Both the position numbers and the translations under genes were made by a program. 64,000 bases of DNA from Amphiscolops sp. MND2022 (lineage: Eukaryota), in NCBI GenBank assembly GCA_964187785.1, contig OZ076409.1, forward strand, positions 16,060,001 to 16,124,000, in the 5' to 3' direction. Shown in pieces: positions 23,601 to 64,000 of the stretch. The notes below the pieces were generated by a model. The model was not told where the DNA came from and searched no databases. It saw only the letters and a list, made by a program, of their open reading frames with translations. The first letter of the stretch is position 1. The number at the start of each line of letters is the position of its first letter.

Positions 23601-23785
23601 CCTACTTTAGTGTACTTAAATAGGGGATAGGTTCTGTCGGTTTGAAAAATAGTTGATTATGTCCAGCATCTTAGTTTTTATTTCTTTTTAACTCTCAAAA
23701 TGGCTTACTTCAGTGTACCTCCATGGGGGATAAGTTCTGAAAAATTGGTGATTATATCTAACATTTTAATTTTTCAAATGTCTAA
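20660..23785. repeat. ~102-bp satellite, block 2 (~31 monomers)
   Basis: Head-to-tail diverged monomers, including shorter ~91-bp variants; no spacers. Confidence 0.95.
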
Positions 23786-35100: not shown

Positions 35101-36545
35101 TCTTTAACTCTCAAAATGGCATACTTTAGTATACTTCCATAGGAGATAAGTTTTGTCGGTTTCAAAAATTGTTGATTAGGTCCAGCATTTAAGTCTTTAA
35201 CTCTCAAAATGGCTTACTTCAGTTAACTTCCATAGGGGATAAGTTCTGCAGGTTTGGAAAATTGTTGATTAGGTCCACCAGCATTTTAGTTTTTCATCTG
35301 TCTTTAACTCAAAATGGCTTCCTTTAGTGTACTTCTATATGGAATAAGTTCTGTCGGTTTGAGAAACTGTTGATTATGTCAAGCATTTTAGGTTTTTATT
35401 TGTCTTTAACTCTCAAAATGGCAAACTTTAGTGTACTTCCATAGTGGATAAGTTCTCTCAGGTTTGAAAAATTGTTGATTATGTTCAGCATTTTGGTTTT
35501 TTTAAATTTTTCTTTAACACTCAAAATGACTCACTTTAGTGTACTTCCATAGGCGATAAGTTCTGTCGTTTCTAAAAATTGTTGAATATTTCCAGCATTT
35601 TAACTTTTCAATTGTCTTTAACTCTCAAAATGCCCTACTTTAGTGTTCTTAAATAGGGGATAATTTCTGTCGGTTTGAAAAATAGTTGATTATGTCCAGC
35701 ATTTTAGTTTTTTATTTGTCTTTAACTCTCGAAATGGCTGACTTTAGTGTACTTCTATATGGAATAAGTTCTGTCGGTTTGAAAAATTGTTGATTGTCGA
35801 GCATTTTAGGTTTTTATTTGTCTTTAACTCTCAAAATGGCTTACTTTAGTGTACTTCCATAGAGATGAGTTCTCTCGGTTCGAAAAATTATTGAATATTT
35901 CCTGCATTTTAACTTTTCAAATGTCTTTAACTCTCAAAATGGCTTACTTCAGTATACTTCAATAACGGATAAATACTCTCGGTTTGAAAAATTGTTGATT
36001 ATGTCCAGAATTTCGGTTTTTTACTTGTCTTTAACTCTCAAAATGACTCACTTTAGTGCACTTCCATAGGTGATAAGCTCTGTCGGTTTGAAAAATAGTT
36101 GATTATGTCCAGCATTTTAGTTTTTTATTTGTCTTTAACTCCCGAAATGGCTGATTTTAGTGTACTTTATATGGAACAAGTTCTGTCGGTTTGAAAAATT
36201 GTTGATTGTCGAGCATTTTGGTTTTTATTTGTCTTTAACTCTCAAAATGACTCACTTTAGTGTACTTCCATAGGTAATGTATGTGATGAGTTCTGTCGTT
36301 TCTCAAAAATTGTTATTTCCAGCATTTTAACTTTTCAATTGTCTTTAACTCTGAAAATGGCTTACTTTAGTGTACTTCCATAGGGGATAGGTTCTGTCGG
36401 TTTGAAAAATAGTTGATTATGTCCAGCATTTTAGTTTTTATTTTTCTTTAACTCTCAAAATGGCTTACTTCAGTGTACCTCCATGGGGGATAAGTTCTGA
36501 AAAATTGGTGATTATATCCAGCATTTTAATTTTTCAAATGTCTAA
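32199..36545. repeat. ~102-bp satellite, block 4 (~43 monomers)
   Basis: Same monomer, with recurrent multi-monomer higher-order patterns. Confidence 0.95.
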
Positions 36546-44376: not shown

Positions 44377-46215
44377 TGAGCTGTTAAAAAGTTTGAAGTT
44401 TGGTGGTTGTTTCTTTTAGAAATATTAGTACTGACATAAGAAGTCTAAGATTTTAACAGCAGTGTCGTCTTATCTTACGCTTGGTAGCTAGCTAGTTCTG
44501 AGTACAATCTATTTCTGAGATCTCAGTTCTTGGAGTGTTGGAAGAAGACTGATCGTCAGGAAGAATTCTCAATTTCTCCAAGTAGATATATTCTATTAAC
44601 TAGGGTAGGTTTCATCAATTACAATGTGACAGCAACAGGATGAATTGGAGAAGCTTGGTACAGGATATATTAATTGAAGTTTCTTCTAGAATAATTGGTT
44701 TCTAGATTCAATTAGATTTACTAATTTCTTTTGTTAAGAGTTCAGAGTATTTCAGATTTATAAAATCTTTGAGGACATGCATCATGGCATCACAATCAAC
44801 CGGGAATTTAAAAATAAAATTACATATATGCACTTTGAGTTTAAGGAGTTCTAGAAGTTTTTGTTATATGCATGGGTTTGTTTCATATGTGTTGTACTAA
44901 AGTTGCATGAGTTTCGTTTTGTAGAGTACCATACTTAAGGAGTGAGAACAACCTAAGACGATTTGACTTCTTACGTCATAGACGATTCAATTGGTGCAAA
45001 AAGGTTCAAACAGGTTCAAGTTCTTTCAGTTTCTTTGACTGACAAGTTCTTTGAAGTTATTGTTGACAACTATTTATCGTTTCATGTTTCTTTTTCGTAT
45101 CAGCCATCGGCTTGTTTGAAAAAATTCTTTCATCAACATGAGTTAGTCAGCATTGAAAACTTTTCAAGTTGAGGAATTAAAGCGTGAAGTTGTCAATGAG
45201 TTGTGAACCAACATTGGCGGGTATGTGAACCAAAAATGAAGAAGTTTTGAAAAGTCAAGGTTGTAGTGAGAGTTCATTTTCAACAAAGGTGAAGAGTAGA
45301 GCAGAAGCAAGAGTTGAAAAAAAAACTTTGGCTATTTCAAGTTTCAAACATCTGAAAACTAGAAGTGACATTTTTCAAGAGTTCTAAAGAAAAATTTGGA
45401 AAATTTTTGGGAAGGCTTTTGAAGATTAAAACAAAGGTGTAGAACATGACTTGTAAAAGAAAATTTTTGTCCAAAAATCTTAGAAAATTTCTTGTGCTGT
45501 AAGTAGGACTTGTGTTCTGTAAAAGACGGGGAATATAGATGTATTTTGAAGTGTATAATTATGTAAGATAATGTTAATGTTCTATAGACAATACAATGGA
45601 AGGAATTAATATTGTGGTTACAAGAATAATTATGGATAGAATTTGGGAAGGATTATGGTTAATGGGGGGTAATTATACTACGATTATAGAAGATTAAGAG
45701 TAAATAAGAGTAGATAGCACTAAAGAGTAGATAAGGGTATATAGCATTATACGATATTAAAGTTAAAATTGGATAGGTTGCAAGAAGTTACAAGTTATAT
45801 TTGTTAAATTGGATTATACAGTTCAGTTTGAAAATTGAGTCAAAGTTTTGATTACAATGTTTGAATATTGTATTGGTCATTGGAGTATGAAGACCAGTTC
45901 AGGAAGTCAGCAGTTGAGGTGTGAAGACCAGGCAAGAAGTCAGCATTGGAGGATGAAGACCAGTCAAGAAGTCATCGTGGGGTGTGAAGACCAGTGACGA
46001 GGACAAAGTTTGGCAACGTCGATGAACCCAAAGTGTAGATGGATGTTGTTGACCATCGTGGGTGGGTGAAGTGAAGAATTTCAGCATGTGTAGGAGTTCT
46101 TTGAAGAAGTAATCATCAACCACATTTCGAGGCATCATCGAGAGAAGATGAAGGATTTGGAGACGAAATGCAGTCAAAGAGTGAAATAGAAGTAAATAGA
46201 AGTTTGTGTTAGAGA

Positions 46216-46668
46216 TCATTGAAAGAGAGAGTTTTGCGATGGAGGATGAGTTTGGTGTTGGATCGGGTCATAAAGTTCTAGTTTTTGAGTATACCCGAAA
46301 TCTTTCAGCATATTATTAAAAGCATCTATAGCTTCTTGGATAGCAGTACGAAAGTACTGATCCTTTGAAGTAAAGGACGAATTGAGGACGAAAACAACAT
46401 TAGATGCCGTTTCACAAATGGCAATTTTAGGTCCTTGAAGATGGATTCGCGAGTATTGCTCGAAAGTGGTTTTCTTTTTCTTTATTTGCGTGACATTGTA
46501 GAGTACTTTTAAGAAAGCGATGAGACATTTGGGCGTAATTTTGTTTTTGTGAATCTCAAGCGAGAGTTTGAAGGCCATGGTGTGAAATATGGCGGCTTTA
46601 AGACTATGCACTTTCGAAAATTCTGAAGTCATGGTTAGAATGTCGTTTGTTTCAGCATTTGGAGCCAT
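46216..46668 (-). CDS. ORF5: orphan 150-aa accessory protein
   Basis: ATG-initiated, normal-complexity ORF on the element's sense strand downstream of ORF4; no family recognised. Confidence 0.5.
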   Translation of the reverse strand: MAPNAETNDILTMTSEFSKVHSLKAAIFHTMAFKLSLEIHKNKITPKCLIAFLKVLYNVTQIKKKKTTFEQYSRIHLQGPKIAICETASNVVFVLNSSFTSKDQYFRTAIQEAIDAFNNMLKDFGYTQKLELYDPIQHQTHPPSQNSLFQ

Positions 46669-47085
46669 GATGACGAGAGTTTGAAGAATGCGAAGAAAGA
46701 GAAGTTGGGATGTTCTGAAAGAATTTGGATGAAGGAGGAGGAAGAATGGATGTTTCTAAAACAAAGGAAGTGTAAGAAGAATGACAATATCGAGTCAAAG
46801 ATGTACAACAAAATTTGGAGCTGGAATGTATCATATTTAGTGTTGTGCTAGATTGTCTTGTATGTCTTGTATTGTAGTGTTTTTAGTAGAAATAGTTAGT
46901 TTTTTGACATGTACTGTATGAAAAATTAGTGTACTTAAAAAACAGTCCTGAGATTTCATTCAAAAGCAAGAATTTACTTTAAAGAAGTAGGTAAAAATGA
47001 AAATACCTTGTAGAATGTGCCACAGATGTACCATAGAATGTACCAGAGAAGAAAAATTAAAACTTTATAATACCTGTAGAGGAGT

Positions 47086-48380
47086 TTAATGAAGATTAGT
47101 TGAGTTAAAAAGAGTAGTTATAGTTTCCAAAGCAGATTGAATTGCTTGGGATGATTGAGTGATGCGTTGAGAGTCTAAATCGAGTGTCTGAAGTAGTTTG
47201 TGTGTTCTGTCGTAGCAGTGTAGTATATGTGTAAGTGTTGTGATAGATGTTTCAGAGGAGTTTCGTTTATAGGGTTCAAGTAAATTTGTTATGTCGCGAA
47301 GTGTTCGGTTGTTTAATACAGAGGAAAGTTTGTCAGGAGTGTTTTTGATAGGAGAAGTGTATGATTTATGTTCAGTTTTTTGTTCGGCTTGTACCATGAA
47401 AGAGATAGTTTTGGCAGAGATAAAGAGAAGTTCGTTGTAGGATTATGTTTGTTTGTAGAGTGCTGTATAGTACGTTCTATCTTTATCATCAAGTGGAGAA
47501 GATACTAGATGTTTAATAACAGTAAGAGGTTTGGCAATTTGAGTAGGAATGTTGCAAGGCAACAAAGCATCATCGTAATGTATAAGATATTCTTGAGGTA
47601 CAATAAGTGGACGAGAAGTATTGTTATATGGAAGCAAACAGAAGTATTGTTTTATAGGGTCATAGTTTCGAAGGTAGCCTGTTATACAAGAGTGGTCTAG
47701 AGTGTACATATTTGTCATTGTGAACGGTGATGTATATTTGTAATTGACAAAAATGTGATTTTGTGGTTTCGTGTATTGTAGGAATTTAGTATATGTTTGA
47801 TGATGAGTAGCTTTTTGTGCTATAGAGAGGAAAGATGGATCAGATTCATCTGTTTTGAGATCGTAGATAGATGGTCGCCATTATCGAGCCAATATTGGTA
47901 TGGACCCATTATTTTGGAAGCAATGGATGTAAAGAAGTCTTGATTTTTGTCATACAAGCGAAATGAATAGTCTGTAGGATGCATGTATAGAGAAGTTAGT
48001 TGTGCTTTAAGGACGAAATCGTCTGTAGAAAGAATTGAGATCAAATTATCATCTCGATTCGTGCAAAGTGAAATTTTCGAAGGTATTGAAGGAGGATATA
48101 TTAGCGATGAAAGAAAGATTGGATCTTTCATAATTTCATATCGTTTTTTTGGAGGAGGTGGTGTCGATTGTGTGTGATCAGTATCAGCTTGTGAAGGAGT
48201 AGGTTTTGAATTTTCATGTTCAACTTTTGTATGTTCCATTGGTTCAAGAAAAAATGGAGGTGTTTGTTCAGAAGTCTCAATATAGAGAACAGGAGAATTA
48301 TTCGAAAGAGGTCTTGTTAAAAGATCTGTTGGGGTTGCTTGTTCAAGCTGTGTTTGTAGGTCAATTTGTGCTTGTGTCAT
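47086..48380 (-). pseudogene. ORF4: orphan accessory gene (~430 codons) broken by a frameshift (~47880) and a TAA (47443-47445)
   Basis: ORFs 47443-47718 and 47086-47397 share a frame that is open from ~47880 and overlaps the end of ORF 47820-48380; same codon bias as pol and env. Confidence 0.65.
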
Positions 48381-48642
48381 TGTTTTAAAACATCAACAGT
48401 CACAGTGTTATCTATTCCAAGAGGCCTTAGCACTTTAAAGTTAACGTACTATAAATTACACTAACGAGTGGATTTATCAACTTTGGTTGAAGAGTTTTTG
48501 AAGACTGTTATTCTTAGAGATGTATTATCGGGTTGAGGAAGATGAACTTCTGCAAGAGTTTCGTGTGGTGAAGGAGTAGCAATTGTGAAGAAATAGTAGG
48601 CAAGTGTTCTGGAAGAGAGTTACAGAAAAACTGAGAGAGAGT

Positions 48643-51351
48643 TCAAGAAGATGGAGGAGGAAAAAGATAGTTTATTCGCGAATAGATTTTAATTGGTGTA
48701 TCCGTAGTAGAGTTGACAGGATTGTTAATTAAAGTGTCATGTTGAGTAGTTAGATTGTCATTCGAGTGAAAGTTTTTATGAGTATAAATAGGAAGTGGAG
48801 GATGTTGAACAGGAGAGAAAGGAAGTGGAGTCGTTTTATGGTGAGAATTGTGGTGTCGTTTCGGAAAGAAGTTAAATTTAGGAAATTGAATTTTGTTAGG
48901 TCGTTTAGTATAGAAAGGTGGAGGGGAAGTAACATCTGTAGAATGGTTAATTAAATTTGGAGAAGTGTCAATAAAGTTATCTAAGGATTTGGATTTCGAA
49001 AGTGGACTTTTGGGTTTTTTGTTTTGAGTCTCATGGAGGTCACTGACCATTCTTGCTGTAAGAACATTAAAAAAACCATGTGCAATAGAACTAAGTAAAG
49101 TAATATTATTTTTAAGATTATATTTAATGGATATTGTTTTGTAAAGTTTAACAATAAGTGTAAGAGTAGCTTGTACAAAACGAAATGTAGAAAAGTATAT
49201 GCCACATTGTGTAAGAATGTAACAAAGGTATCCAAAAAGTGCAATAAAAGCATCTGAAAACCATGTAGGTGTAAGAAGAGGAGTTAAATTCAAGAGTTTA
49301 ACATGGAGTCCTATGCGTAATGAATTGTAAGGATTACCTGAGTCTTGAGGGGAATCTGCATCGTAATTTGGAGTATTAGATGAAATGAATGAATAACTAA
49401 GAGCTTTGCCTAATAGTTGAAGTGTAGAGTCAGAATGTTTAGAAAATAAGATACGGTTCCAAAATTGATCAAGTTCTGCATTTGAATATATACCAGCATC
49501 TTGGGCTGTAAAAGTATTGGGACGTATTGTAGTTTTGATTTGTGAAGGTGTAAACATTAGTGGAGGTTTACGTTTAATAGGTTCAGGTCCAAGAATGTAA
49601 AAGTCTTGGTCATCTGAGTCAGGATCTAATTCAATAATGTTACGTGGATTATTATCACATGTAATTGGTGTAGCATAATCATAAGTTTGTCTTGTAATTG
49701 GGTCAACGTACATTAAGGTGTCTTTGAAGTGTATAGGTATACGGTCAAAGCATCTATCTGCTTTGTATAAAGGAGATAAAAAATGAGGACAGTCATAAAG
49801 CCAGGCGGTTGAGCCTTCAACGTATAAGAAATTACTTCTATTACCGTTTAAAAGGAAACCAGCAAGTTGAGGGTTTTGTACTGACATTGCGAGTATTGTA
49901 AGGAGTTGGTTTCGTTCTAATTCACATATTGTATGGAGAGTATTTAGTTCTTGTACGGTCATTGATCGGAAAACATGGTTAATAGTGTAGTCTACTTTGG
50001 TGTTTATATGTGCGTCATAATCAATGGTAGCAAAATTGTTGGAGACATTTAATGCAGGGAATACAAATTTATTATTTGAAGTGTCCAATACTATTTTACC
50101 GGAAATATATTCATCAATCATAGAATGAGGATTGGGTTGTCCTGTATGCATATTGAAACCATCGGTGTAGGTAACAAAAAGGTCTGAATATTGTGTAGAA
50201 TAGAGAGGGTCTGGTTTACCACAAAAGGTTTGTGCTGTAGGGAAGACTTCAAATCTTGAAAGACTCGGATTATTTGGATGTTGTGTATGAGGAGCATGAA
50301 CATAAGGATGTTCTGTACCTTTGATACCAGAAGTGGCTTTAGATTTTATTGAGTGTGGTGAATGTACAAAGGAGTCTGTTTCAATCCAATATCTATCTTC
50401 AATTTTAGTCATACGTCCAATAAAGTCCTGTAAGGTAAAAATTAGGCAATAATCGTCATTGAACCAAACAAGAGTGAAAGGAGTTTTTGTTGTGGGTTTA
50501 CAGAAACCATCTGCAAAGTAGCAGGGTAATGTATGTCCATCTATGATCATGTCGTTAGATGTGTCATCATATGTAAGTTCTACTTCAGAAATTTCTAGTC
50601 GCCAACTAACTAAGTTGACTTCGAATTGGTGATGAGCAGGGCAGTTGTGATAAGGGTTTCGAGTAGGGTCATATATCCAGTTTTTATCAGCAGGCATAAA
50701 TGTAAATGTACCTGTATACATTTTGTTCAGTTGATATACAGTAAAAGGGGTTTGGTATTGTTCTAAACGTTCTTGAAAATAATGGTCTTCTAGGAGTGTA
50801 AAAGTTTTATTATAATGATGGTTATTTAGTATTTTATCATTTGTACCATTTAAATGTCGTATAATGTTTTTACATTCTACTGGATCAAGAGTAACAGGGA
50901 GTGGTAATGTATTATGATTCCATACGGTTCTATCGACACGACGATATTTTACTGAACCTTGAAAGCATATTTTCCTTTCTTTCTTTGCATAAGCAACACA
51001 TTTGAAAGCTTTGATGCGTTTAGCTTTTGCGCGTACATATACACGGGCTTTAACACTTGCATGTTTAATGTCAGAAGGAGCTTCAGTGCATTGTTTTACA
51101 TTAAGTAGATTAAATTGTCTCAAATTGTGTTGTTTTGCACAGTCATAATGAGAAACCATGAGATTTGTAATATTGGGATCGTCTGATGGAAGATAGTTTT
51201 CAGTGTCAGAAGGTGTTATGGGTATAGAGAAGGTGATGTTAAAGAAATGTAAATAGAGTATTAGATTTGTTATGTAAAAGATTGTGTAGGGTTTAAAAGG
51301 ATGTGGTATATTTAAGACCGGAATATGGGTTACAGAAGACAATTTTGCCAT
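48643..51351 (-). CDS. env: Envelope glycoprotein, class III fusogen-like (herpesvirus gB / chuvirus G-like), 902 aa
   Basis: N-terminal signal-like hydrophobic stretch; Cys-rich ectodomain (HYDC...C...AFKC...ICFQG...EC; CELER...NPQLAG...EGSTAWLYDC...CFDRIPI...DPITR...PITC); N-glycosylation sequons; C-terminal TM region and long tail. Confidence 0.8.
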   Translation of the reverse strand: MAKLSSVTHIPVLNIPHPFKPYTIFYITNLILYLHFFNITFSIPITPSDTENYLPSDDPNITNLMVSHYDCAKQHNLRQFNLLNVKQCTEAPSDIKHASVKARVYVRAKAKRIKAFKCVAYAKKERKICFQGSVKYRRVDRTVWNHNTLPLPVTLDPVECKNIIRHLNGTNDKILNNHHYNKTFTLLEDHYFQERLEQYQTPFTVYQLNKMYTGTFTFMPADKNWIYDPTRNPYHNCPAHHQFEVNLVSWRLEISEVELTYDDTSNDMIIDGHTLPCYFADGFCKPTTKTPFTLVWFNDDYCLIFTLQDFIGRMTKIEDRYWIETDSFVHSPHSIKSKATSGIKGTEHPYVHAPHTQHPNNPSLSRFEVFPTAQTFCGKPDPLYSTQYSDLFVTYTDGFNMHTGQPNPHSMIDEYISGKIVLDTSNNKFVFPALNVSNNFATIDYDAHINTKVDYTINHVFRSMTVQELNTLHTICELERNQLLTILAMSVQNPQLAGFLLNGNRSNFLYVEGSTAWLYDCPHFLSPLYKADRCFDRIPIHFKDTLMYVDPITRQTYDYATPITCDNNPRNIIELDPDSDDQDFYILGPEPIKRKPPLMFTPSQIKTTIRPNTFTAQDAGIYSNAELDQFWNRILFSKHSDSTLQLLGKALSYSFISSNTPNYDADSPQDSGNPYNSLRIGLHVKLLNLTPLLTPTWFSDAFIALFGYLCYILTQCGIYFSTFRFVQATLTLIVKLYKTISIKYNLKNNITLLSSIAHGFFNVLTARMVSDLHETQNKKPKSPLSKSKSLDNFIDTSPNLINHSTDVTSPPPFYTKRPNKIQFPKFNFFPKRHHNSHHKTTPLPFSPVQHPPLPIYTHKNFHSNDNLTTQHDTLINNPVNSTTDTPIKIYSRINYLFPPPSS

Positions 51352-52531
51352 ATGTGATAATGGGTATATTCAGATCGCGTTCAAATTCAATATGTACGAC
51401 TTCAAAAGGAGCAGGAGAAATTTTGTGTTCTATTTTAGAAACGTGAAATATTGGGTGTGGATTTAATCCTTGAAATTTGACTTTGACTTCAAATTTAAGT
51501 TCTAGATTTGGTGTCTGAAGACGTTTTAGTTCTGTTTCCTTGCGTTTGTGAGATAAGAGATCGTTGTTATTAATGAAACGTTCTGCAAGAATTGGAAATC
51601 GAGGATGGTTTTGTGGGTCGTAGATGGTTATACCATCGACTCTAAGTGGATAATCAGCAAAATTTGGAGTTGGGGGTCTAGAATGTTCTGCAGTATAGTA
51701 TTCAGGTAGTCTAATATGTGCAGGAACAGGAGTAGGAATTACTACTTGTGAAAAAAGGTCTCCTGATAAAAATGCAGTCTGGGCGTTAGATGAGAGTAAT
51801 GAAGCGGTTTCAATGCCAGAAGTAAAATACGGAGATTGAAAGAGTTCTGAAGATGGTGTGTCAGAGGATAACGGTTGAGAGTGTTGTCGTACAAGTCGTA
51901 ATGCAGAATAGCTAGAGAGAGCGGAAAAATTGAGTGTTGAAGTGTCTGTACTAAGTCTACGTGAGGGGAGATCGCGAAGATTGTATCGATGTTTAGGTAC
52001 AAAAAGTGAACTTGTGTCTTGTGATGGAGCGTAGTCTGAAGTATTGTCTAGGAGATCTGAGAGTGATGTAGAAGGTTTTCGAAGGGGTTTTAATGGGGGA
52101 TAGAGTTTTGAAGAAGTAGTACTGAGTTCTGATGGTAATTTCAATGAAGGTAATTTTGTATATTCAGTATCAGGGATTTGTACAAGATTAAGTTGAGGTT
52201 GCAGTCTAACAGTTTTTATAGCTGTAGGATGTTTGTAAGTTACGTATTGTTCAACACTTTCAGGATTTGGTATGTGTATAATAGGAGTGTTAATAGGAGT
52301 TTGTTGAGTACGAGTGTTTATAGGAATTTCAGTTATAGGTGGTCTATGAAGGAGTGATGAAGAGGCGGTTTCAGAGACGTATGATCTTGGTCTTTTAGAA
52401 GGAGTAGTAGGAGTTACATTACTAGAGTTTGTAGTGTTTGATACTAAAGATTCGGGTGTAGAAGGAAGACTTGGAGCTGATGGAGATATATCAGAGGAAG
52501 AATCCAGGATTGTTGAAATGTTTTCAACAGG
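51293..52531 (-). CDS. ORF2: ~412-codon Ser/Pro/Thr-rich open frame without any ATG, carrying PSAP and LYPPL motifs
   Basis: The ORF-track 283-aa ORF (TTG start) stays open upstream to a TAA at 52532-52534 by manual translation; it overlaps the env start. Confidence 0.7.
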   Translation of the reverse strand, partial: PVENISTILDSSSDISPSAPSLPSTPESLVSNTTNSSNVTPTTPSKRPRSYVSETASSSLLHRPPITEIPINTRTQQTPINTPIIHIPNPESVEQYVTYKHPTAIKTVRLQPQLNLVQIPDTEYTKLPSLKLPSELSTTSSKLYPPLKPLRKPSTSLSDLLDNTSDYAPSQDTSSLFVPKHRYNLRDLPSRRLSTDTSTLNFSALSSYSALRLVRQHSQPLSSDTPSSELFQSPYFTSGIETASLLSSNAQTAFLSGDLFSQVVIPTPVPAHIRLPEYYTAEHSRPPTPNFADYPLRVDGITIYDPQNHPRFPILAERFINNNDLLSHKRKETELKRLQTPNLELKFEVKVKFQGLNPHPIFHVSKIEHKISPAPFEVVHIEFERDLNIPIITYGKIVFCNPYSGLKYTTSF

Positions 52532-52617
52532 TTATCTTTGAGATAACTTGTTATTGGTTATATTTCATTTAACTGGAGTGACTAGTTTTGAGTGAGCCAG
52601 CAGATAGAATGATGGAA

Positions 52618-55600
52618 TTACAGTTGGGAAGGTGTAATAAAAAGTCTATAATCTAATTTGGGTTGTTGTCGTAGTTTATAAGTGGTTTTTGTGGTTCTGT
52701 CAATTAGAGGAGGAAGTGAAGTTGTTTGGTTGTTAGAAGAGTGTCTTGATCTGTCACTAGAGACATTAGTGTGAGGGGTATTAATTATATGTCTATATAA
52801 GGAGTTGTCATTGGTTGAGGAAGTTAAAGACTTGTCATTGGATGTTATAGATGGTGTATTTTGATTGAACGTAATAAATGATGGTGGTGTCACAAATGTT
52901 TGAGAATCTTCTTCAGACAAGGATTCGTCTGAGTTAAACGGAGAAGAATCACTGTTTGCATATCTGGTTGTTTGTGGAATTTGGATTTGAGTTGTGTCTG
53001 AAAAGCGCATAAAATTACGCAAATGTGGATATAAGAGTGGTTCTTTAGGGTAATATGGAATTAAATGATTTCTATGAACGTGTACTGTAGAGCCATCTTG
53101 TGCAAGTAGTTCATATGTAACATCTGATAATCTATCAAGAATTTTGTATGGTCCAATCCGAAGGGGTTTGAGTTTGTCAGAAAAATGAACATGTGTAAAA
53201 TTACGTTTTAAAACAAAGGTACCAATAGGAAGGGGATTACCTTCGTGGTAAGTTTTTGTAATGTATGCGTGTGAATTAATTTTTCGTAGGGTGTTTTCGT
53301 ATACTGTGGAATAAATTTGTAACATAGCAGTTTCTACAGCGAGAAACCATTGGGGAATGGGTTTTGAAAGTGTTTTATAGAAGAATGGGTTTAAATCTGA
53401 TTTATCATAATGAGAGTGTTCAGGAAGTTGAGAACAATAGCGTGAAATACATGTTTTGGAGGTATCGCGGTTAAGGTTTAAATCAAATGTGAGGGGTATT
53501 CTGGGTCTAGTGTGGAAAACAATTTCGTGAGGTGAAACATTGAGTTCTGAAAGTGGTTGTGAATTATGTCCATAAGCGTACATATGGACTTGAAATGCCC
53601 AATCTTTAGGTGTGTCATGTAGGAACATTCGAAGGTGAGTACCAAGATTTCTGTTTTCTACTTCAACAAGGCCATTTGTCCAAGGAGAATAAGCCGTTCT
53701 AGGAGAATGACGAATTCCCATAAGTGTACAAAGGTGTGCCATTTCTTTATTAACATATTCTGATCCACGATCAGTGACAAGGTATATGGGTGGTCCAAAT
53801 TTAATAATCCAATGGTGTAGGAGAGTTTTGATAGCAGTCTTTGCGTTGTTTGATTTGATGGGTACTGTAACAACAAAGTGACTAAAAGCGTCAATTATTA
53901 CGTGTATATAAGATTTGTTGTGAGAAGGAGGATTAATTGGTCCTTTAGTTTCCATTGAAATTCGGTAGTTGAAAGATGGAGCATGTTCTGAAAATGATTG
54001 TGTAGGAGCAGTTTGAATTTTCATATTGAAGTGTTTGTTACGTTGACATTCAATACAGTCATGTATGAAAATGGAAAGCCATTTTTCAAGGAATGGAATG
54101 TAGTAATATTGTTTGAATGTATTATATGTAATTTTCATACCAGTGTGAGAGTGTTCATTGAGTTTGTTAAAGACAGTTTTGAACATGCGAAAAGGAAGAC
54201 ATATACGAATAGTGTCTTGTACAAAATTTGGAGTAGAAGATTGGTTTGTAACAGTAGGATTTGTAATATATAGGCTAATAAGGTTTGTGGATTCGTCAAT
54301 GAAAAGTTGTGAGAATCTTTTGTAGTAGACATGTAAAAATGGAGTACCAGTGATAAGAGGTCTTATAAATTCGGGTTTTTCATTGTTTAATAACCAAGAA
54401 TAAACAGTTCTAAGAACCGGATCTTGGAATTGTTGTTGTTGAAGAGTTTTTATGTCTAATGAATAATCATCTGGAAGAAAAAAACCTTGAAAATAGTTTT
54501 TGTACTTGAAAAATGATGTATCATAGAAAGGTATAATGTGTTGACAATGTGTGAGAGAAGGTAAATTTGGTTGTACATTGATTGCAGAAACAGATTTTTG
54601 TGAGGTAATATGAGTTAATTGGTTAAGAGTAGAAAAATTTTCTGTTTGTAATGTTGTGTCTTGTAGGAAGGAAGAGTCAAATTTTGGAATTCTGGTGTAT
54701 ATATGATCTTCGTCATCGCTTGTAACATCAGTATCATTAAGCAAGAGAGATTGTTGATGAAGGGTTTTATTGTTCTTTTTTGTAGGTGTCTTAAATTTGG
54801 TTTGAAAAGGAGTTACAGATTTGAATGAGAAAGATTGTAACGGTTTTACAACAATGTCATTTCCTTTGTCATTGATGCGAATAGAGAATTGGTCTGTACC
54901 ATAATCAGCGAGAATTGGGTGAGAGTCATGTTTTTGATGAGGTAAAATTTCTTCATGTTTAAATAGGTAATGTACAGGTTTGAGAGTGTTGTCTTGTAAT
55001 AGTGCAAAATCAATTTGTGGTGGAAGTTGTTTGTGTTTTAATTGGTTTAATTGTAATTCAGCTTTTGTGAAGGAGCGACTCAACATATAGGCAACAGAGA
55101 GATTTTTTCCAGGGGTGTGAATTATCTTGAGTTTTGAAAATTTTGTCAATTGCATTTGAGCTCTGTAGAAACGAGGGCTGAGATTACCTTTCTTTGTAAA
55201 ACAATGTAATAAAGGTTTGTGATCAGTGAAAATGTGTATTGGATGGGGAGAACCTATGATAAGAAATTCATAGATTTGAAGTGCGTGTACTATACCAAGG
55301 AGTTCTCTATCAAGTGTGGAGAGTTTTTGTTCTTGTGGGTTAAGTATACTAGAGTTGTACGATATGACTTTCATTTTGTTTTGTTCACTTAACTGGAATA
55401 AGACAGCGCCTAATCCAATAAGGGAAGCGTCAACTGTAATGAAAAATGGATGTTTTGTATTTGGTATTGTTAATTCTGTTTCAGAAGTGAGAGACATTTT
55501 AAGTTTTTGGAAGAGACTTTCGTGTTCATCTGTCCATTTCCAAGGAGTGTTCTCATTTAAAAGATCGTAAAATGGTTTGAGGTTAATATGTAATTTTTCA

Positions 55601-58600
55601 ATAAATTTGGTGTAAAAATTGAGTGCGCCAATGAAACTCATTAGGGCAACTTTGCCAGTTGGAGAAGGGATTTTATGAATAGCTGCAATTTTCGAAAGAA
55701 TTGGTTTAATTGTATTGTAACCAATTTCATGTCCAAGAAATTTGACTTTAAGAAGCATGAAAAAGGATTTTTCAGGAGCTAGTTTAAGATTGTGTTTTGT
55801 ACTAATAAGGTGTAGTTGTTCTATGAGTTGGAACATGTGTTCTTTAGAGTCTGATAAAAGTAATATATCGTCTATATAGACAAGAGCGAAACCTTGTTCT
55901 ATGAGGGTTTAAAAGAAGGTAGACATTTGTTTTGTAAAGAAGTTTGGAAGTCCTTTGAGACCATAAAAGCCTCGGATGAAAGCAAAGAGTTTATCTCCGG
56001 AGGAGAAACTAGTAAGTTTTATAGTGTCTTCGTCAAGAGGTGTATGTGCATAGGCATACATAAGGTCAATAGCGGATTTGTACTTTTTGTTTGCGCGTGC
56101 TAATTGTGGAGCAAGAGGTTCAATAGTCCAAGATTCATCAGATTGTTCTGTATTGGAATTAAGGTGTCGAGCGTCTAATACACATTTTATTGTATCTCCC
56201 TTGGGAATTATAATAAGAGGGTTTAAATAAGTTGTGCCATAAACGGGTTTGTCTTGAGGGGAAGAACCAATTTGTTTGATAATGTTATATTTTTCGAGTT
56301 CTTTGAGAAGTACGTTAAGTTTGTCTCGGTAGTGAATAGGGACTTTGGAAGGACGTTGTGTTATAAGTTGAGCATTTGGTTTAAGTCGTATACGAAAGGG
56401 TGTTGAAATTTTTCCAACATAGTTTTTATGAGTTGCATAACATGTTTTATATTTGAGTAACATATTGCAAAGAGTAATGTATTCTGTATCTGTAAGGTCA
56501 GAAAATTGGAAGTTAAATTTATTAATGAATTTTAAATTTTCAGAAGTGTATGGTAAGGAAGGAAAAATGCGTTTTTCAGAAGTGTGAGAAGTAGGTTGAA
56601 CGTTTTATAAAGGAGAAGTTTGATTTGGAATGTCATCATTTGTCATATAAATTTGATGTAGAGAGAATTGAGGAGGGGGGGTTGTAGGATCATCATATTG
56701 TACAATATAGTTAGTTTGTGGAAGTGGTTCTGTAATATCAGGATGATAAGTATGAGTAACATTATGTATTAAAGTATTAATGTCGTTAACTTGGAAGAAT
56801 TTAGGTTTTTCATTAGTAATTGGAACTTCAATGTATCCAATATGTCCTGTAGGTAGTGTTGCAACATGTTTCGAAGTGTTCTGAATAATAGTTGCACAAA
56901 TGTCTGGTTTGTCATCAGTAAATACTTCAATAAAGTTAAAATTTGTACGAAATTTGGTAGCAAAATAGGTATGAGGTACTGAAGGGAAGAAGTGGTTTTG
57001 TGGTGTAGTTGTAAAATGAAGATTATGATAATTTTTTATTGGAAAGTGTGCGATTTTTGAAGACTTGGGTTTTAGACGTATTTGAGTTTTTGAGTTTATT
57101 CTATAGATGTAAGAGAAATATGGATAATCTTTGGATAGGAGTGTTGTGAACTTTGTATGGTTTGGGTGTGTTTTTGATTGATATTTAAATTCGAGTGTAA
57201 AGTCTTGTATGTTTATGTTTTGTATATTGTCTTCAAAGAATGGTGTTCCAAGGATGTTGTATTTGATATCAGCTACTGCAAAAGGTACTGAAAAGTAACG
57301 GGAGTTTTCATCAATAGTGGTGTTCGAAATTATATTGGCATAATGTAAAATAGGAACTTCAGTTTGGTTTGCAACAGTTAATGTTTTGGAATTTCGAGTT
57401 GGTCCAACATCAGAGGTGTGATTTGATCTGATATCTAGAAGTTTTGTGAGAGTTATATATGTTGGGTAATTTAGTACTGAAATGGAAGCACCGCTATCTA
57501 GAAGAAATGCAATTTCTAATCTAGATGGGTTATCTCTTTGTACTATAATTGATGGTGTATGTACATATAGTGTATAAAACCAACTTGTAGGTGTGACAGC
57601 ATTTGCCATTGCTGTTGGATGGTACATGTGTACTTCAAATTTTATAGGGTCAGTTTGGTCTTGTTGTTGTATCATATTAATTTTATTTTTGGAATTTGAA
57701 TGTGAGCGAGATCTAGAAAATCTAGAGTCTCTTGGTCTTGAAGGTGGTCTATATGAATTTGTGTATTTTGTGAATTTGTTGTCTCTTGAATAGGAGCGTG
57801 ATCTGTATCTAGGACGAGAGTTTTGTCGATATGGGGATCTATAAGAAGATCTGTAAGGAGAACGGTAAGATCGAGAATCACGTTTGTATGTATCATATCT
57901 TGATCTAGAGTAGTGTGGAGGAGTGGTACTTTTGTCATAACGAAATCTATCTCTATCTCGAGATGTAGAACGGTATCGGTTTTGTGGATAATTTCTGTTA
58001 TAAGAGTTGTCTCGTGAGGTACTTCGATTTCGGTATCGATTATCATATTGTTTTGTTCTATCATTGGAAGGAGAACGGAAGTACTGTACAAATGATTTTT
58101 GTGGAGATTTTGATCGAGCATATGCTTCTCGTTTATCTTCATCATCTCGTTGTTTTTTGAAACAAGCAGAAATGGAGTGATTTGTTCTATGGCAGTATGA
58201 GCAGTATTTTTTATAGGCAGGTTTATTTTTGTTATTTGGGTCTTTAGGTTGTGTATACATAAGTTGTTCTTGAGATGAATGATCAAGAGTTTGAGTGTTC
58301 AATTGTTTTGTAATATTATTAATTTCAAGTGCAAGATCGTGTGTTCTGATTTTGTCGTTTGCAATATCTTCGGCGTCAACAAGTTTTACTAATGTATGAA
58401 AAGGGATTGAAGGTTCTAGAACAGTGAAAGTGTGTTTTACTTGTCTTTTATTTGCAAAATCTTTGAGATTCTTTGGAAGTCCTTTTGTGAAGATTTCATT
58501 ACATTTAAGGTTAATAGTGGATGCATTCTCATTACACCAGCCTTTTTCAACCAGTTGTTGAACTTTGAGTGCAAAGTGACGTACTGTTTCATTATCTTTT

Positions 58601-60816
58601 TTAGGTAAATTAAGGGCTTCAACTTGAGCATAGTAGGCGTTCTTTTGTGATGAGAATTGTTTTTTGAAAGCTTGTTCGAAAGCGTGCCAATCATGTTTAT
58701 AGGTGTCGTTTAAACAAATGTACCAGCTGAGTGCTGTACCTGTTAAAGAGCATTGTATGAAAGCCATGCGACGGGCGTGCCAAAATTTATATTCATGTTC
58801 CAATGTAGGTTGTAAACCTAGGGAAAATGTGGCACGTGCTTCAATATGTTGTAAATATTCTTCAGGTGTATAATTGTGATCGAGTCCATCAAAAGGTTTA
58901 ATGGGTTCTGATATAGAGGTAGAAGAATTAATATATGTTGGATGTGACATAGGGTTAGGAGTTATAGTAGTTGGTGGTGTTGTGTTATACGTAGGAATGT
59001 TTGAAATGTTAGTTAAAGAGGTAGTTGAAGTGTTTTGGAAGTGAGGGTTTGTTCTAATTGTTGTTGAAGGAGGATTTGATATATGAAATTGAGAAGTTTG
59101 TAATGTAGGGTTAATTGTATTAGATGTATGTTGAGAAGAGAGAGTATTTAATTGGTTTGGAGTGTTGTAATTTATCTGGGCTTGTTGTGGAGGATTTGGA
59201 TTAGTACTGGTGAGACTGTAAGATAATGGATTAGTTAATATAGGTTGTAATGGAGGTCGAGAAAGATGTCTGGCAGTTGTATAATTAGAGGATGGGTTGG
59301 AATGAATTGTGTTAATATTTAAGGTAGGTTGTGTAGTTTGTACTGGATTAGTTTGAGCTGGAGTATAAGTTGAAGTTTGTATTTCAGAAGATGATGGTGG
59401 AGTTGGTGTGTGAAAATGTACTGTATTAGTATTCTGTGCAATATAGTGTGTATTTGATGAGCTTGGTTGAGGAGAGTTATGGGTGTTGATCTGAGTTGAG
59501 AATTGAGGTGGATCAGGAGGTGGATTATAATTTCGGGGAGATAATATTTGTGTCTGAGAGGGTTGTGTAATATTAGTATTAGAAGTAGATATCATGGAGG
59601 TATTGTCTTGGTTGATATTTGAAGTATTATCTTGACTTTGGTTTGTAATGTCGTTTTGTGTGATATTGTGGGTAGGAATTATTATACGATTTGAATCATC
59701 AGTTATTGTAAGACTTTGTGTATTTTGTACTGTTTCTTCAGAGAATTCTGATGTATTGTGAATTGTATTGGATTCAGAAGGATTTGGTTGTTGTATATCA
59801 GGAGCTTGTAATTGTGGTGAGTATAATAGTTGTTCTTGAGGAGAATCAGGATTGTGAAAAATATTCGCAAAAGCTTCTTGTTCTGAAGATTCTTGTTCTG
59901 ATTGTTCTGATTGTTGTCTTGTATATAAAGGTTCAACACTAGAGGTTTGTTCTTCAGGAGTTGTTTCATGAGAAGTATCAGATGTAGTAAAAGGTCTGTT
60001 ATCTGATGTTTCAGAATGTTCAAGTATAAAGGTAGAATCTAAATTTATTTGTTCAAGATGTGTAACGTTTAATGAAGTGAGATCTCTATAATGTAAATGT
60101 TTGTTTTCGTTTTGTATGATGTAGGGTAAGAGTTCTGTATGGGTCAATATATGAGGGAAGTTAACGTAGGCTTGTTGATCTTTTTGTTCCCAAATTAGTT
60201 GATAGTTAAAGCTGAGAAGCTTAAATAAGAATTGTGTAAAAATTTTGACTTGTGGTATTGTATCATCCGTAAGGATAATGTTGTTAAAGAATCTGTATTG
60301 AAAATGTTTGATTTGTACTATATCTCGTTGTAACCAATAATGAGGATTATTATGTCGTTGTACTTTTGTGTCAAGATCTGGGACTTCGAAATATTCAGAT
60401 CTGTGTTTTAGTTCTTGTAAATGAGAAGGACGATAAAGTGGTGTGTCTTGGTTTTCATTGAATTCGATGAGTTTTTGCATATATGTGTTAAAAACATCTT
60501 GTATAGAAAGTGTAATATTTTTTGGATGTATAGTTCTATGAAATGTTCCAGAGTTTATTCCTTTGACTGGGTTAAAAATAACTTGAAAAGGGGTTTGTGA
60601 TGGTGTTATATCAAGTGTTTTATATCGAATATAATATAGATAAGAATCAGAATGTTCTCGTACTAATGGAATAGTATGTAATATATAAGGTTCTGTTTCA
60701 AATGGTAATGGGTTTGTGTACTGAAAGATAATGTTATTTAGGAAAGGTGTTACATCTTGTATAAGAGATCGATTTTGTCTTTTTTCAGTAGTGAATGTAA
60801 ATGGAGTGGGAATCAT
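52618..60816 (-). pseudogene. Single-frame gag-pro-pol (~2730 codons) with two in-frame TAA codons (56605-56607, 55909-55911)
   Basis: The three ORF-track ORFs share one frame. Capsid-like PFDG...WY...FKKQF; CCHC knuckle CSYCHRTNHSISAC (58162-58203); protease LLDSGAS (~57490); RT VLDARHLN and YIDD (55867-55878); RNase H TVDAS/DRELL/FTDHKPL; IN HSHTG...CIEC, TDRGSE, NGLVE and a GPY module. The order PR-RT-RH-IN is gypsy-type. Confidence 0.95.
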
Positions 60817-61060
60817 TATAAGGTATTAAGTTTGGTTAGTACAATAAGATTGCCATAACGGATAGATGTATCGGAAAAGAAGATATTTTGTATTGAATTT
60901 TGAATTATATGGTAAAATTTGATCTATAAATACAACTTGTAAGAAAATAGTAAGTGCAATACTTATAAAAAGAAGAAATGGGTTTTGTATATATTGAATA
61001 AGTATATGGAAGGTGTGGTAGATACTAAGTAGTCCAAAAAGGGGTGTTGGCGCCAGTCAT

Positions 61061-61474
61061 CAGAAAGCAGAGAAAGTCGATTTGGAACATGCTGGTTGAG
61101 AAACAAGAACTTAAAACTCTTCGAAACTTAGATGAAAATTTGAACGAAAACCTCACCTTGCTAAAGCGAAAACCCCCCCAGTCGGGATTTTCTCTACAAC
61201 TATTAACCATAGAGACTTGAAACTTGGTACACATATGCAAGTACATAATACGGACACACCGGCTAAGTTTCAAGGTCATTCCCCCCTTATAACCCCCATT
61301 ACCCCTCACATGTGTAGTATTCAAGGTCATTGAGACAAAAATGTAAACATTGCTATTTACCCTTCTGACCACATTAGAATGCAGCTCTGTTGAAATTGAT
61401 GATATTTACATAGTGTAAACATGCTTCTGAGCCCACCTGACCAACATGCCAAAACCACCACATTCTCTGTTTAC
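61061..61474. mobile_element. Possible small non-autonomous element with imperfect terminal inverted repeats
   Basis: cagagaaagtcgatttggaacatgctggtt (left) resembles the reverse complement of gaccaacatgccaaaaccaccacattctctg (right); base composition breaks from the gypsy-like element. Confidence 0.4.
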
Positions 61475-61553
61475 ATAGCCAATAACTTTAATAATTCACT
61501 TAAATGTCATTTATTTATACAACATATTTCAACTTATATTTGCTTATATTTAC

Positions 61554-61964
61554 TGTAGAATTGTAAACCACATTTATACCATTATTAGATAGAGATTTTC
61601 TCCACTGAATAGCTATAGAATAGTTGGGTCTTAGGACCAAGAGACTAATTAATCAACTTCTCAATCTTCACAACTTTTCGCTAGAGTCAGAGCGACTAAG
61701 TAGCTACTCTCATAGTTGGAGAGCCGGAGCGCGTGAAGATACTGTGAGGGAAGTGTGTGCAGGATCACATCGGATCCAATTCAGTGCAAAGAGGAATCGC
61801 AGGAGATTCCACGGGTCACATCGGACCCGCCAGCCAAAAGATACAGTCCTTTAAACAAGAAAACCAGGATTTGTTTAGTGACGGTCCACAGCACTAAGCA
61901 ACGGATCAGGGCGGCGTAAAGCTTGTCAAGCCTCAGCGCAGGATAAGGGCAAGCAGCCGTTACA
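61554..61964 (+). repeat. 5' LTR of a BEL/Pao-like retrotransposon
   Basis: Begins tgta (61554, alternatively 61562), ends gttaca (61964) and is followed 2 nt later by a TGG-initiated PBS. The partner LTR lies outside the window. Confidence 0.7.
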
Positions 61965-61966
61965 TT

Positions 61967-62057
61967 TGGTCCGCCGACCCGGACAACTAGTTGGTCCGCC
62001 GACCCGGACAACTCGTTGGTCCGCCGACCCGGACGAATCGTTGGTGGACGACCCGGA
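61967..62057 (+). promoter_or_regulatory. Primer-binding site tggtccgccgacccgga (tRNA-Tyr-like), three perfect copies plus one degenerate copy
   Basis: Copies start at 61967, 61992, 62017 and 62042 (25-bp period). The reverse complement ends ...ggcggACCA like a tRNA 3' end. Confidence 0.75.
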
Positions 62058-62142
62058 CTAGAAGAAGAAGACGACTCGCTGGTGGACAACTGAGAAGATT
62101 GCCCAAGAAGAACAAGTGTCTGGATCTTGGAGTTGCTGATTT

Positions 62143-62458
62143 TGTGTCTCTGGGAGATTGGGCTACTGTGTCTCTGGGAGATTGGGCTATTGTGTCTCTG
62201 GGAGATTGGGCTACTGTGTCTCTGGGAGATTGGGCTATTGTGTCTCTGGGAGATTGGGCTACTGTGTCTCTGGGAGATTGGGCTATTGTGTCTCTGGGAG
62301 ATTGGGCTACTGTGTCTTTGGGAAATTGGGCTATTGTGTCTCTGGGAGATTGGGCTACTGTGTCTCTGGGAGATTGGGCTATTGTGTCTCTGGGAGATTG
62401 GGCTACTGTGTCTCTGGGAGATTGGGCTATTGTGTCTCTGGGAGTTTGGGCTATTGTG
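62143..62458 (+). repeat. 24-bp minisatellite (13 units) with alternating 48-bp dimer
   Basis: tgtgtctctgggagattgggcta(c/t); the c and t variants alternate. Confidence 0.95.
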
Positions 62459-62492
62459 ACTTTGGAACTAAACTCAATCGACAATAGAAGAG

Positions 62493-64000
62493 ATGGCAGA
62501 ACCAAAACGGTTCGATATCAACAAAATTGAAAACTTTCTGAAGAACTCTGCTGACAAAGCCCAAACGTTGAGTTATTGGACTGCAGCTGTTGAACACGGT
62601 AAGACTGTCAAAGAAATTGATGAGAACCTAGCTAGAAATGTTGACGACAAGCAGATAGCAGATTTACTGCTAAGACGAACAGATGCCATAAACAGGAGGG
62701 ATCGGCTCATTAAGGCAGTCGAAAACGCGATCAAAGTCAAGTATCAACCGCAGATACCCGAAATCTTCTCAACAGTGAACAAAGAAATGCAGAGCCGATT
62801 GGCTGAGTTGCAGCAGCAAAGCTCTAGCGTTGGAAGGGTACAAATGCTGATGTCAGCATTGCAAGACGAAAATCAGATACTAAATTACTTGGATCTTGAC
62901 GAAAAGAAACGTGCTATTGATAGACTAATGGATAGCAACAAAAAGTTGCGGGAAGATTCAATCGCAAATGGCAAAATTGTCGACGAAGAAGATTATGCTG
63001 CAGCATGTCAAGAATTGCTGCAGAAACGGTCTGACATTAAAACGAAAATTGAAGATCTGCTGAAGACAGGAGAAGGAGGAGCCATTTTGCGAAGCCTTGA
63101 AGACGCAGAACAAAGACTAGCAGACGTTCGCGCAAGCGTAGCCGCAGACAAATCAAGAAAAAATGGCACTTCACCACAAAAGGAGCCGCAACCAGACGAT
63201 GAGCAAAAGGAACATGATGGTCACAACGCGGAAGACAGCCAAGAGCCAAGAAATGGAGCTAGATCATTGCCAATAGAAGAATTGAGCATACATTCGCGAA
63301 GTGAAAGAGCCAAAAGCAACAAGACGTCTGTGATTTCAAAAACATCAAGCGCAAGACGAGTTCTACACTTGGAGCTAAAAGCTCTGAAGGAGCAAGAAGA
63401 ACTGCAATCCCGCCTGGAGAAACTGGGAAGAGAAACAAAACAAAAGGAAATGGAAATAGCAGACTTGCAAGGTGAGGTCGCCCGCAAGGCCAGAATTGCA
63501 GAAAAGGAAATAGAACTGGCGAAATTTTCAAGTAGTTGTGGCACCAGCTTGCGAAGTATTTCACCAGTCGAGTCACCAGACGACAATCTGACGAAAGTCT
63601 CAGATTGGATGGACAAGACCGAAGAAGCTGAAAACGTGGCATCGCCGAATAACGTGCCATCTGTATACCAGCAAACGTCCGCCTCAGCACCAGTGATTAC
63701 AGTACGATCAACTCATGAAGGACAACGCTCCGGGCTAGTGGGGGACTTGAAACTCTCCGTGAAACCGACCATATCCACAGAAGCCGCTGTGCGAGGCATT
63801 GGAAAGGACAGAACAAAGACTGTCATAGATGTTATCAGTCAAAGAGCAACAGCACAACCAGAAGTGAAATTCGCCTCATCGAAGCCGTCGATGACTCTCA
63901 GTGCAGAACAGATTGGGTTACCGCCTACGTCAGGAGGCATCCCGAGTGGTGCATTTCAAGTGCCACAGCTTGAGAACACGCAGAAGCCGTATCTGCCTCG
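62493..64000 (+). CDS. BEL/Pao-like gag N-terminus, apparently open to the window edge (absent from the ORF track, consistent with no in-window stop)
   Basis: ATG at 62493: MAEPKRFDINKIENF...SVISKTSSARRVLHLELKALKEQEEL...TKVSDWMDK. Coiled-coil plus Ser-rich pattern typical of BEL gag; follows the LTR and PBS. Confidence 0.7.
   Translation, partial: MAEPKRFDINKIENFLKNSADKAQTLSYWTAAVEHGKTVKEIDENLARNVDDKQIADLLLRRTDAINRRDRLIKAVENAIKVKYQPQIPEIFSTVNKEMQSRLAELQQQSSSVGRVQMLMSALQDENQILNYLDLDEKKRAIDRLMDSNKKLREDSIANGKIVDEEDYAAACQELLQKRSDIKTKIEDLLKTGEGGAILRSLEDAEQRLADVRASVAADKSRKNGTSPQKEPQPDDEQKEHDGHNAEDSQEPRNGARSLPIEELSIHSRSERAKSNKTSVISKTSSARRVLHLELKALKEQEELQSRLEKLGRETKQKEMEIADLQGEVARKARIAEKEIELAKFSSSCGTSLRSISPVESPDDNLTKVSDWMDKTEEAENVASPNNVPSVYQQTSASAPVITVRSTHEGQRSGLVGDLKLSVKPTISTEAAVRGIGKDRTKTVIDVISQRATAQPEVKFASSKPSMTLSAEQIGLPPTSGGIPSGAFQVPQLENTQKPYLP

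Follow-up and report, generated by a model that had tools for sequence, protein, structure and literature searches.

The window analysed here, 64,000 nucleotides of contig OZ076409.1 from Amphiscolops sp. MND2022, contains most of a copy of an endogenous metavirus (Ty3/gypsy) that belongs to a real, young and abundant family and was recently active. The element carries five genes, gag-pro-pol, ORF2, env, ORF4 and ORF5 (ORF, open reading frame), between long terminal repeats (LTRs). The best explanation overall, which we hold to be probable though well short of certain, is a recently active metavirus of complex genome with a budding protein made by CUG initiation and leaky scanning and with an enveloped particle. 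The listed ORFs all lie on the minus strand between window positions 61045 and 44377 and share a strong excess of C over G that forms one block from ~44.4 to 61 kb, in agreement with the preliminary description of this DNA, which had reported five genes in one orientation with a shared base composition.

The same description placed the element at 44377..61056 with a length of ~16.6 kb. The location held, but identity to other copies ends at 61045 and the element is ~18.0 kb long. No LTR pair was found within the 64-kb window. The 3' LTR (44377..44794, minus strand, TG...CA ends) is 418 bp here and ~411 bp in other copies, and the 3' end of the leader, which has a full length of ~1,155 nt, occupies 60817..61045 on the minus strand. 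At 61045 the leader is interrupted by an 8.7-kb BEL/Pao insertion with 921-bp LTRs, oriented opposite to the gypsy element, and the remaining leader, the primer-binding site and the 5' LTR fall outside the window, at window-equivalent positions ~69757-71048. Between the 5' LTR (70639-71048 in the same numbering) and the 3' LTR, 6 of 410 positions are different, and an identical 4-bp duplication flanks the two. The presence of this 5' LTR behind the nested element rules out a simple 5' truncation, and the window element is full length, ~18 kb net. This copy is dead: two stops interrupt its gag-pol frame, ORF4 suffers a frameshift as well as a stop, and RNase H and integrase are each altered, privately to this copy, at one catalytic position.

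The family was examined through its junctions and through a sample of copies. Exact 21-base patterns gave at least 1,525 3' junctions in the genome and 1,780 5' junctions, which may include the sister family D, with reversed controls giving 0 in both cases. About 25 copies could be paired from the best 40 matches of each end, of which 20 were fetched and five with much longer or shorter spans were left out. All 20 were collinear with the window at 97.2–98.1% identity, with internal deletions or duplications of ~0.1–1.1 kb in seven of them, so the chance nesting of separate insertions raised in the preliminary description, in which other copies would lack ORF2, env, ORF4 or ORF5, was not encountered. 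Both LTRs could be parsed in 17 copies, of which 16 had a 4-bp target duplication, and the LTR pairs of these 17 differed at 0–7 sites, or 15 in one copy, with a median of 3 of ~411. The TG...CA ends and the 4-bp duplication fall within the Metaviridae pattern of TG...CA LTRs and target duplications of 4–6 bp. Frames open over their full length were counted in 12 (ORF2), 5 (env), 13 (ORF4) and 17 (ORF5) of the 20 copies. The integrase-type duplications, the transfer RNA (tRNA) primer site and the near-identical LTRs show that the element is copied by LTR retrotransposition.

Relatives of env at 78, 61 and 53% identity led, within the same genome, to the sister families D, C and B/B', which have reverse transcriptase (RT) identities of 73–93% and the same gene order. 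The order LTR, gag-pro-pol, ORF2, env, ORF4, last ORF, LTR was found in all eight copies taken from B, B', C and D, and the primer site and the 3' site were likewise kept in all eight. Ratios of nonsynonymous to synonymous substitution rates (dN/dS) between the window family, A, and family D were taken between natural copies, where silent sites are not saturated, and gave 0.11–0.12 for gag-pro, 0.03–0.10 for pol, 0.16 for ORF2, 0.09 for env and 0.05–0.23 for pieces of ORF4. For ORF5 the same comparison gave proportions of nonsynonymous and synonymous differences (pN and pS) of 0.25 and 0.84, respectively. Between B and B' dN/dS was 0.06–0.10, with 0.26 for the last ORF. Protein-guided alignment depresses dN somewhat; a nucleotide-aligned position test, which is free of that bias, gave an excess of changes at third codon positions in ORF2, env, ORF4 and ORF5 and none in a 3' untranslated control region. 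These data show that all five genes were held by selection while the families diverged. The check proposed earlier, conserved gene order with dN/dS<1, thus came out as an unchanged order in 8/8 sister copies and values of 0.03–0.26.

The gag, pro and pol regions form a single reading frame of ~2,730 codons (60816-52618, minus strand). The two gag-pol stops of the window copy are absent from 20/20 and 19/20 of the other copies, the remaining copy being deleted at that point, and programmed read-through between gag and pol was rejected since the stops are private to the window. The gag-pro part (56605..60816, minus strand) ends at one such stop. It begins with an orphan domain of ~250 amino acids (60816-60061), 41–65% identical across families and with no PDB sequence match or credible Pfam family, followed by a low-complexity linker, a gypsy-type capsid recognised by Pfam (~58761-58543), a CCHC knuckle (58203-58162) with an Arg/Ser-rich stretch behind it, and a protease with an Asp at 57498. 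The pol part (52618..56604, minus strand), which contains one private stop, encodes RT with the YIDD motif at ~55872, RNase H, a spacer of ~330 amino acids and an integrase with an HHCC zinc finger, a core and an SH3/GPY tail. Pfam recognised RT, RNase H and the three integrase parts as well. The order protease, RT, RNase H, integrase, together with the gypsy-type capsid and the GPY/SH3 tail, is that of Metaviridae.

The unusual RT motifs pointed out in the preliminary description are genuine, being present in 18–20 of the 20 copies, and two of them, NP-x-I and GFYGL, characterise a wider clade. When RT was compared with solved structures the scores were 123 bits for Ty3, 96 for cauliflower mosaic virus, 69 for foamy virus and 32 for murine leukemia virus. 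Within a representative library, most of the 150 matches listed were 27–36% identical, a few proteins reached 37–46%, and near-identical fragments were also present. The divergence claimed for RT was borne out by a tree of 35 chosen rows (IQ-TREE), in which 18 rows consisting of library proteins, families A–E and five metagenome contigs formed a clade with 100/100 support and a long stem; a FastTree of 106 rows agreed. The tree contained no named references and was rooted at the midpoint, so it shows distinctness among these rows rather than a formal placement. Every clade member with enough sequence after pol (families A–E' and the metagenome contigs L115, L119 and L120) has the same env family, with differing accessory ORFs. 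RT appears to form a clade of its own, together with env-bearing relatives from marine metagenomes.

The env gene (902 amino acids, 48643..51351, minus strand) matches the class III fusion family PF24664 (Monjiviricetes_fusion) with an E value of 3.5e-23. Its product has an N-terminal hydrophobic leader, an ectodomain with 14 cysteines, a C-terminal membrane segment and a long tail with a PPxY motif, and the leader, membrane segment and cysteines are kept in relatives at 26–30% identity. The neighbours of Env in the atlas are all clusters of class III fusogens (chuvirus-like, herpes glycoprotein B (gB) and rhabdovirus G). Env gave no Baculo_F match, no R-x-K/R-R (furin-type) site and no PDB sequence match. 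The AlphaFold model was unusable, with a mean predicted local distance difference test score of 32.8, and the class III fold consequently rests on the family matches. Env is predicted to be a class III (chuvirus/gB-like) fusogen. The suggestion that the element has a different fusogen was correct in that Env is not of the baculovirus F type; as a type it is not new, since gypsy elements with gB-type env have been described (PMC13524379).

Between pol and env lies ORF2 (404 amino acids, 51293..52507, minus strand), which starts at a CUG at 52507-52505 and overlaps the start of env by 59 nt. The protein is rich in Ser, Thr and Pro and mostly of low complexity, with a conserved C-terminal part, and gave no PDB sequence match and no credible Pfam family. 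It lacks Met in the window and in seven of the eight sister-family copies, the eighth having a late Met. Similarity between families begins at a Leu encoded by CTG, and this CUG has A at -3 and G at +4 in 20/20 family copies, 8/8 sister copies and 5/5 subfamilies. CTG accounts for ~1% of the Leu codons across gag, pol and env, and for 2–7% of those of ORF2. The pol stop is present in 20/20 copies, and ORF2 occupies a different frame with a stop just upstream, again in 20/20. From the CUG to the env AUG (1.2–1.3 kb) there are 0–3 AUGs in any frame, compared to 17–32 per 1.2 kb of pol and env, a deficit that was significant against codon shuffles in all five families (p 0.000–0.026). The residual AUGs listed for this region open frames of 1–17 codons. 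An AUG followed at once by a stop occurs at window position 52419, 88 nt past the CUG, and is common to families A and D. In rice tungro bacilliform virus a non-AUG first ORF and ~900 nt without AUG allow ribosomes to reach the next ORF (PMC5902531), and the pattern in ORF2 resembles what leaky scanning yields there. The analogy is with the pregenomic RNA of a plant pararetrovirus that is not homologous, and the downstream ORF here is env.

Late-domain-like motifs are found in both proteins of this region. ORF2 has YPxL at one aligned place in 5/5 subfamilies and PSAP in 3/5, and the Env tail has PPxY in 5/5; L115 and L119, which have no ORF2, carry YPxL in the Env tail instead. PSAP, YPxL and PPxY represent the three types of late domain that recruit the endosomal sorting complex required for transport (ESCRT) (PMC2958808). 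ORF2 is a putative budding adaptor which, we infer, is made in a fixed ratio to Env.

The primer-binding site, placed after the 5' LTR as in Metaviridae, is complementary over 13 nt to a tRNA-Val(UAC) gene that this genome carries, and over 11 nt to a tRNA-Met. A polypurine tract before the 3' LTR is usual in Metaviridae, although not strictly defining. The plus-strand primer site of the window element (44795..44825, minus strand) consists of a T-rich run followed by a degenerate polypurine tract interrupted by C, with 7 purines in the last 15 bases. This arrangement recurs in seven subfamilies of the same genome, where the T-rich stretch leads into an A-run, two to four Cs follow and the end is rich in G; the last 15 bases hold 7–12 purines. 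At the same place L115 has an ordinary polypurine tract (14 of 15 purines) and the same primer-binding site. The C-interrupted site is read as a degenerate tract because its position, A-run and G-rich end are those of L115, and it is kept in families that transposed recently. A literature search on atypical polypurine tracts found no description, a weak result that depends on the wording used. Replacement of the tract by a palindrome in lokiretroviruses found no support, with 0 matches in PMC7947760.

ORF4 (47086..48380, minus strand), a soluble orphan of ~442 amino acids, carries one frameshift and one stop in the window; 13 of the 20 copies keep it as one uninterrupted frame of ~442 codons. 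It gave no credible Pfam family, a blank in the atlas and PDB matches at chance level only; the best 120 of its 339 matches were all at least 35% identical and from a single source. ORF5 (46216..46668, minus strand) is an orphan of 150 amino acids without a credible Pfam family, 64% identical in D and weakly similar in C. Its position in family B holds a different ORF, and clear ORF5 homology is confined to the pair of families A and D. The preliminary description had proposed orphan accessory genes, and ORF2, ORF4 and ORF5 are indeed under selection with no credible Pfam family. A sixth small ORF (46267-45899) was rejected as a gene, having no match in families B, C and D.

More distant relatives have other ORFs after env. 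Families E and E' (G000 C4 57.33-57.35, C7 50.94-50.96 and C6 49.24-49.26 Mb) are ~45% identical in RT and ~19 kb long, with 2.1-kb LTRs, gag and pol in separate frames, and the same class III env ~4 kb beyond pol. Their last ORF contains a TRAF-type MATH domain (PF21355, E values of 2e-22 and 8e-22), preceded in family E by a coiled-coil-like stretch, and is possibly a TRAF decoy. In L115 and L119 env is followed by other orphan ORFs, which have a short domain in common with the small ORF behind env in family E. By eye, ORF4 resembled the ORFs behind env in family E, L115 and L119; this likeness was rejected at an hhalign probability of 0.1%, and profiles of ORF2 and ORF4 found no match in these three.

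As proposed here, the element would work like an enveloped endogenous retrovirus, an infectious nature that is read by inference only. A full-length RNA would give one Gag-Pol polyprotein, and a subgenomic RNA starting past pol would be bicistronic for ORF2 and env. Some ribosomes would initiate at the ORF2 CUG and others would scan the AUG-poor ORF2 to the env AUG, with leaky scanning setting the ratio of ORF2 to Env. ORF2 would most likely act as a budding adaptor that recruits ESCRT through PSAP and YPxL, aided by PPxY in the Env tail, and Env would let the enveloped particle fuse into a further cell, with passage from soma to germ line as the most plausible route. ORF4 and ORF5 may be soluble accessory proteins made from further short RNAs, and a role in RNA export or host counter-defence is no more than a guess. 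Plus-strand DNA synthesis would be primed at the C-interrupted tract adjoining the 3' LTR.

Several observations weigh against this proposal. Synonymous resampling, which is stricter than codon shuffling, found a significant AUG deficit in just three of the five families (p 0.014, 0.040 and 0.006; p 0.094 and 0.73 in the other two), and a low-complexity stretch of gag is also AUG-poor, indicating that the depletion is partly compositional. No strong hairpin was found downstream of the ORF2 CUG, and no GTRAG splice donor in the five leaders scanned. Four-letter late-domain motifs arise by chance in 2–26% of shuffles of these proteins. The atlas recognition score of Env is under the atlas threshold, and env is open in full length in just 5 of 20 copies, in a sample that is biased toward full-length copies because they were picked on both ends matching. 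The last count would also suit an intracellular retrotransposon that puts env and its extra ORFs to a use other than making free enveloped particles, such as passing directly from cell to cell or tuning its host, and germ-line transposition alone can give more than 1,500 copies. We consider this unlikely, as the dN/dS of Env is 0.06–0.09 with silent sites saturated or nearly so, its leader, membrane segment and cysteines persist at 26–30% identity, and all three types of late-domain motif are present.

A different mode of expression for ORF2 is somewhat less likely again. In this reading an upstream AUG exon would be spliced to ORF2, or ribosomes would reach it from pol by frameshifting; its role would be regulatory (Rev/Tat-like or phosphoprotein-like), and the CUG would be kept as an RNA signal. 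Several pyrimidine-AG sites lie upstream of ORF2, the protein is mostly low-complexity, and the Tor element of Oikopleura sets a precedent of spliced env RNAs and internal promoters (PMC4402516). Yet similarity between families begins at the CUG codon itself, the invariant pol stop, the change of frame and the stop upstream of ORF2 argue against continuation from pol, and splicing would leave the loss of out-of-frame AUGs unexplained. That the genes are a chance nesting of insertions, or frames open from base composition alone, is scarcely credible. C/T-rich strands do yield long spurious frames, the small ORF at 46267-45899 and several overlapping frames are present, and the window copy holds one nested element; the collinear copies, the conserved order and the selection refute it for ORF2, env, ORF4 and, as between A and D, ORF5. 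The metavirus with a leaky-scanned budding protein and an enveloped particle remains the reading that we prefer.

When the element was compared with known systems, the closest in description were the 'ancient errantiviruses' of Chary and Hayashi, who reported 1,512 gypsy elements that carry env; in many of these it is of the gB type, and such elements are described as widespread across animals (PMC13524379). Shared with these are the Ty3/gypsy pol order, LTRs, a tRNA primer, multiple copies, an invertebrate host and, after a gypsy pol, a class III env with leader and membrane anchor. Compared by description, the present element differs in having a 1.27-kb gene between pol and env and two genes after env. 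The prefilter of that survey allowed a pol–env gap of up to 1,000 nt and a region of up to 10 kb, and would pass over this layout because of the 1.27-kb gene and a gag–env span of 12 kb. In the portions of the paper available, the phylum list omits Xenacoelomorpha and the main text makes no mention of accessory genes or polypurine tracts; the primer sequence and three RT motifs are absent from seven supplements, which may not hold protein sequences. The mitochondrial cox1 of the host (contig C1929) reads with NCBI table 5, the invertebrate mitochondrial code (AAA Lys, AGR Ser, ATA Met), which excludes the cnidarian/ctenophore, tunicate and flatworm/echinoderm mitochondrial codes.

Burro/GYPSM1 of planarians is likewise a very large gypsy element with accessory coding capacity and an env resembling mononegavirus fusion proteins (PMC6431247). 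Its accessory domains include MATH/TRAF, also found here in sister family E, but its env lies in frame between gag and pol in a polyprotein of 4,900 amino acids, whereas the env and accessory ORFs here are separate and follow pol. Cer1 encodes a Rev-like protein (PMC10309623). Tor is also of gypsy type with a membrane glycoprotein env, which is expressed from an internal promoter as well as from spliced RNAs, in somatic cells beside germ cells; the available text describes it with three ORFs and mentions no CUG-initiated gene before env (PMC4402516). Anakin, a BEL/Pao element with a chuvirus glycoprotein, has the same fusogen family (PMC7642597). Unlike Anakin and Belpaoviridae, the RT of the present element is nearest to Ty3 among solved structures and there is no Pao peptidase domain; the nested element has the Pao type. 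Troyka has CG...CG termini, a 3-bp duplication and no env (PMC12440569), insect errantiviruses of the gypsy/ZAM type have a baculovirus F-like class I env, and Retroviridae, including lokiretroviruses, have a tether with a second RNase H, a class I env and vertebrate hosts. None of these three descriptions fits, and the present pol has one gypsy-type RNase H directly after RT and is followed by a class III env. In a viral contig collection two gypsy contigs of a different RT clade, L105 and L106, have short terminal repeats and an 890-amino-acid ORF after pol, which in L105 matches Baculo_F.

A literature search with Repbase and GyDB outside its scope found no description of the five-gene layout, of an LTR element with a gene initiated at CUG ahead of env, or of the RT clade. 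The CUG-started ORF2, the C-interrupted polypurine tract and the separate RT clade were not found in print. The claim that this is an undescribed system is not supported as regards its class III env and its pairing of env with accessory ORFs, since gypsy elements with the former (PMC13524379) and giant gypsy elements with the latter (Burro, PMC6431247) are known.

The surroundings of the element are repetitive. About four tandem copies of a 1.43-kb unit occupy ~39000-44376, and the gypsy element was inserted at their edge. Arrays of a 104-bp satellite at 20669-23739 and 32371-36499 lie inside segmental repeats of 4.4–7.1 kb (~16.2-36.7 kb). The nested BEL/Pao element, which is not part of the gypsy element, occupies 61045..64000 on the plus strand (5' LTR 61045-61964, gag start from 62472) and continues beyond the window; it looks complete, with LTRs 99.2% identical and a 24-bp repeat array in its leader.

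In its widest form the proposal is that marine invertebrates harbour complex reverse-transcribing viruses, still infectious, which make up a lineage of genus level. These viruses would combine a class III fusogen with a separate budding protein that starts at a CUG and is tied to env through leaky scanning, would prime the plus strand on a non-purine tract, and would carry accessory genes that can be exchanged, among them, in a sister family, a captured TRAF-like coiled-coil/MATH protein. We put this forward tentatively, as possible rather than probable. The family offers three predictions: a budding protein outside Gag, control of env in an LTR element by non-AUG initiation and leaky scanning, and acceptance of a C-interrupted primer by RNase H. 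The function of each gene is testable because the family is young and very abundant and several diverged lineages occur in one genome. Surveys limited to adjacent pol and env and to ~10 kb overlook the most complex members. The family bears on the question of whether gypsy elements that carry env in hosts other than flies are true viruses, and if such a lineage exists, its members would be the invertebrate counterparts of the complex retroviruses, moving between cells and perhaps between animals.

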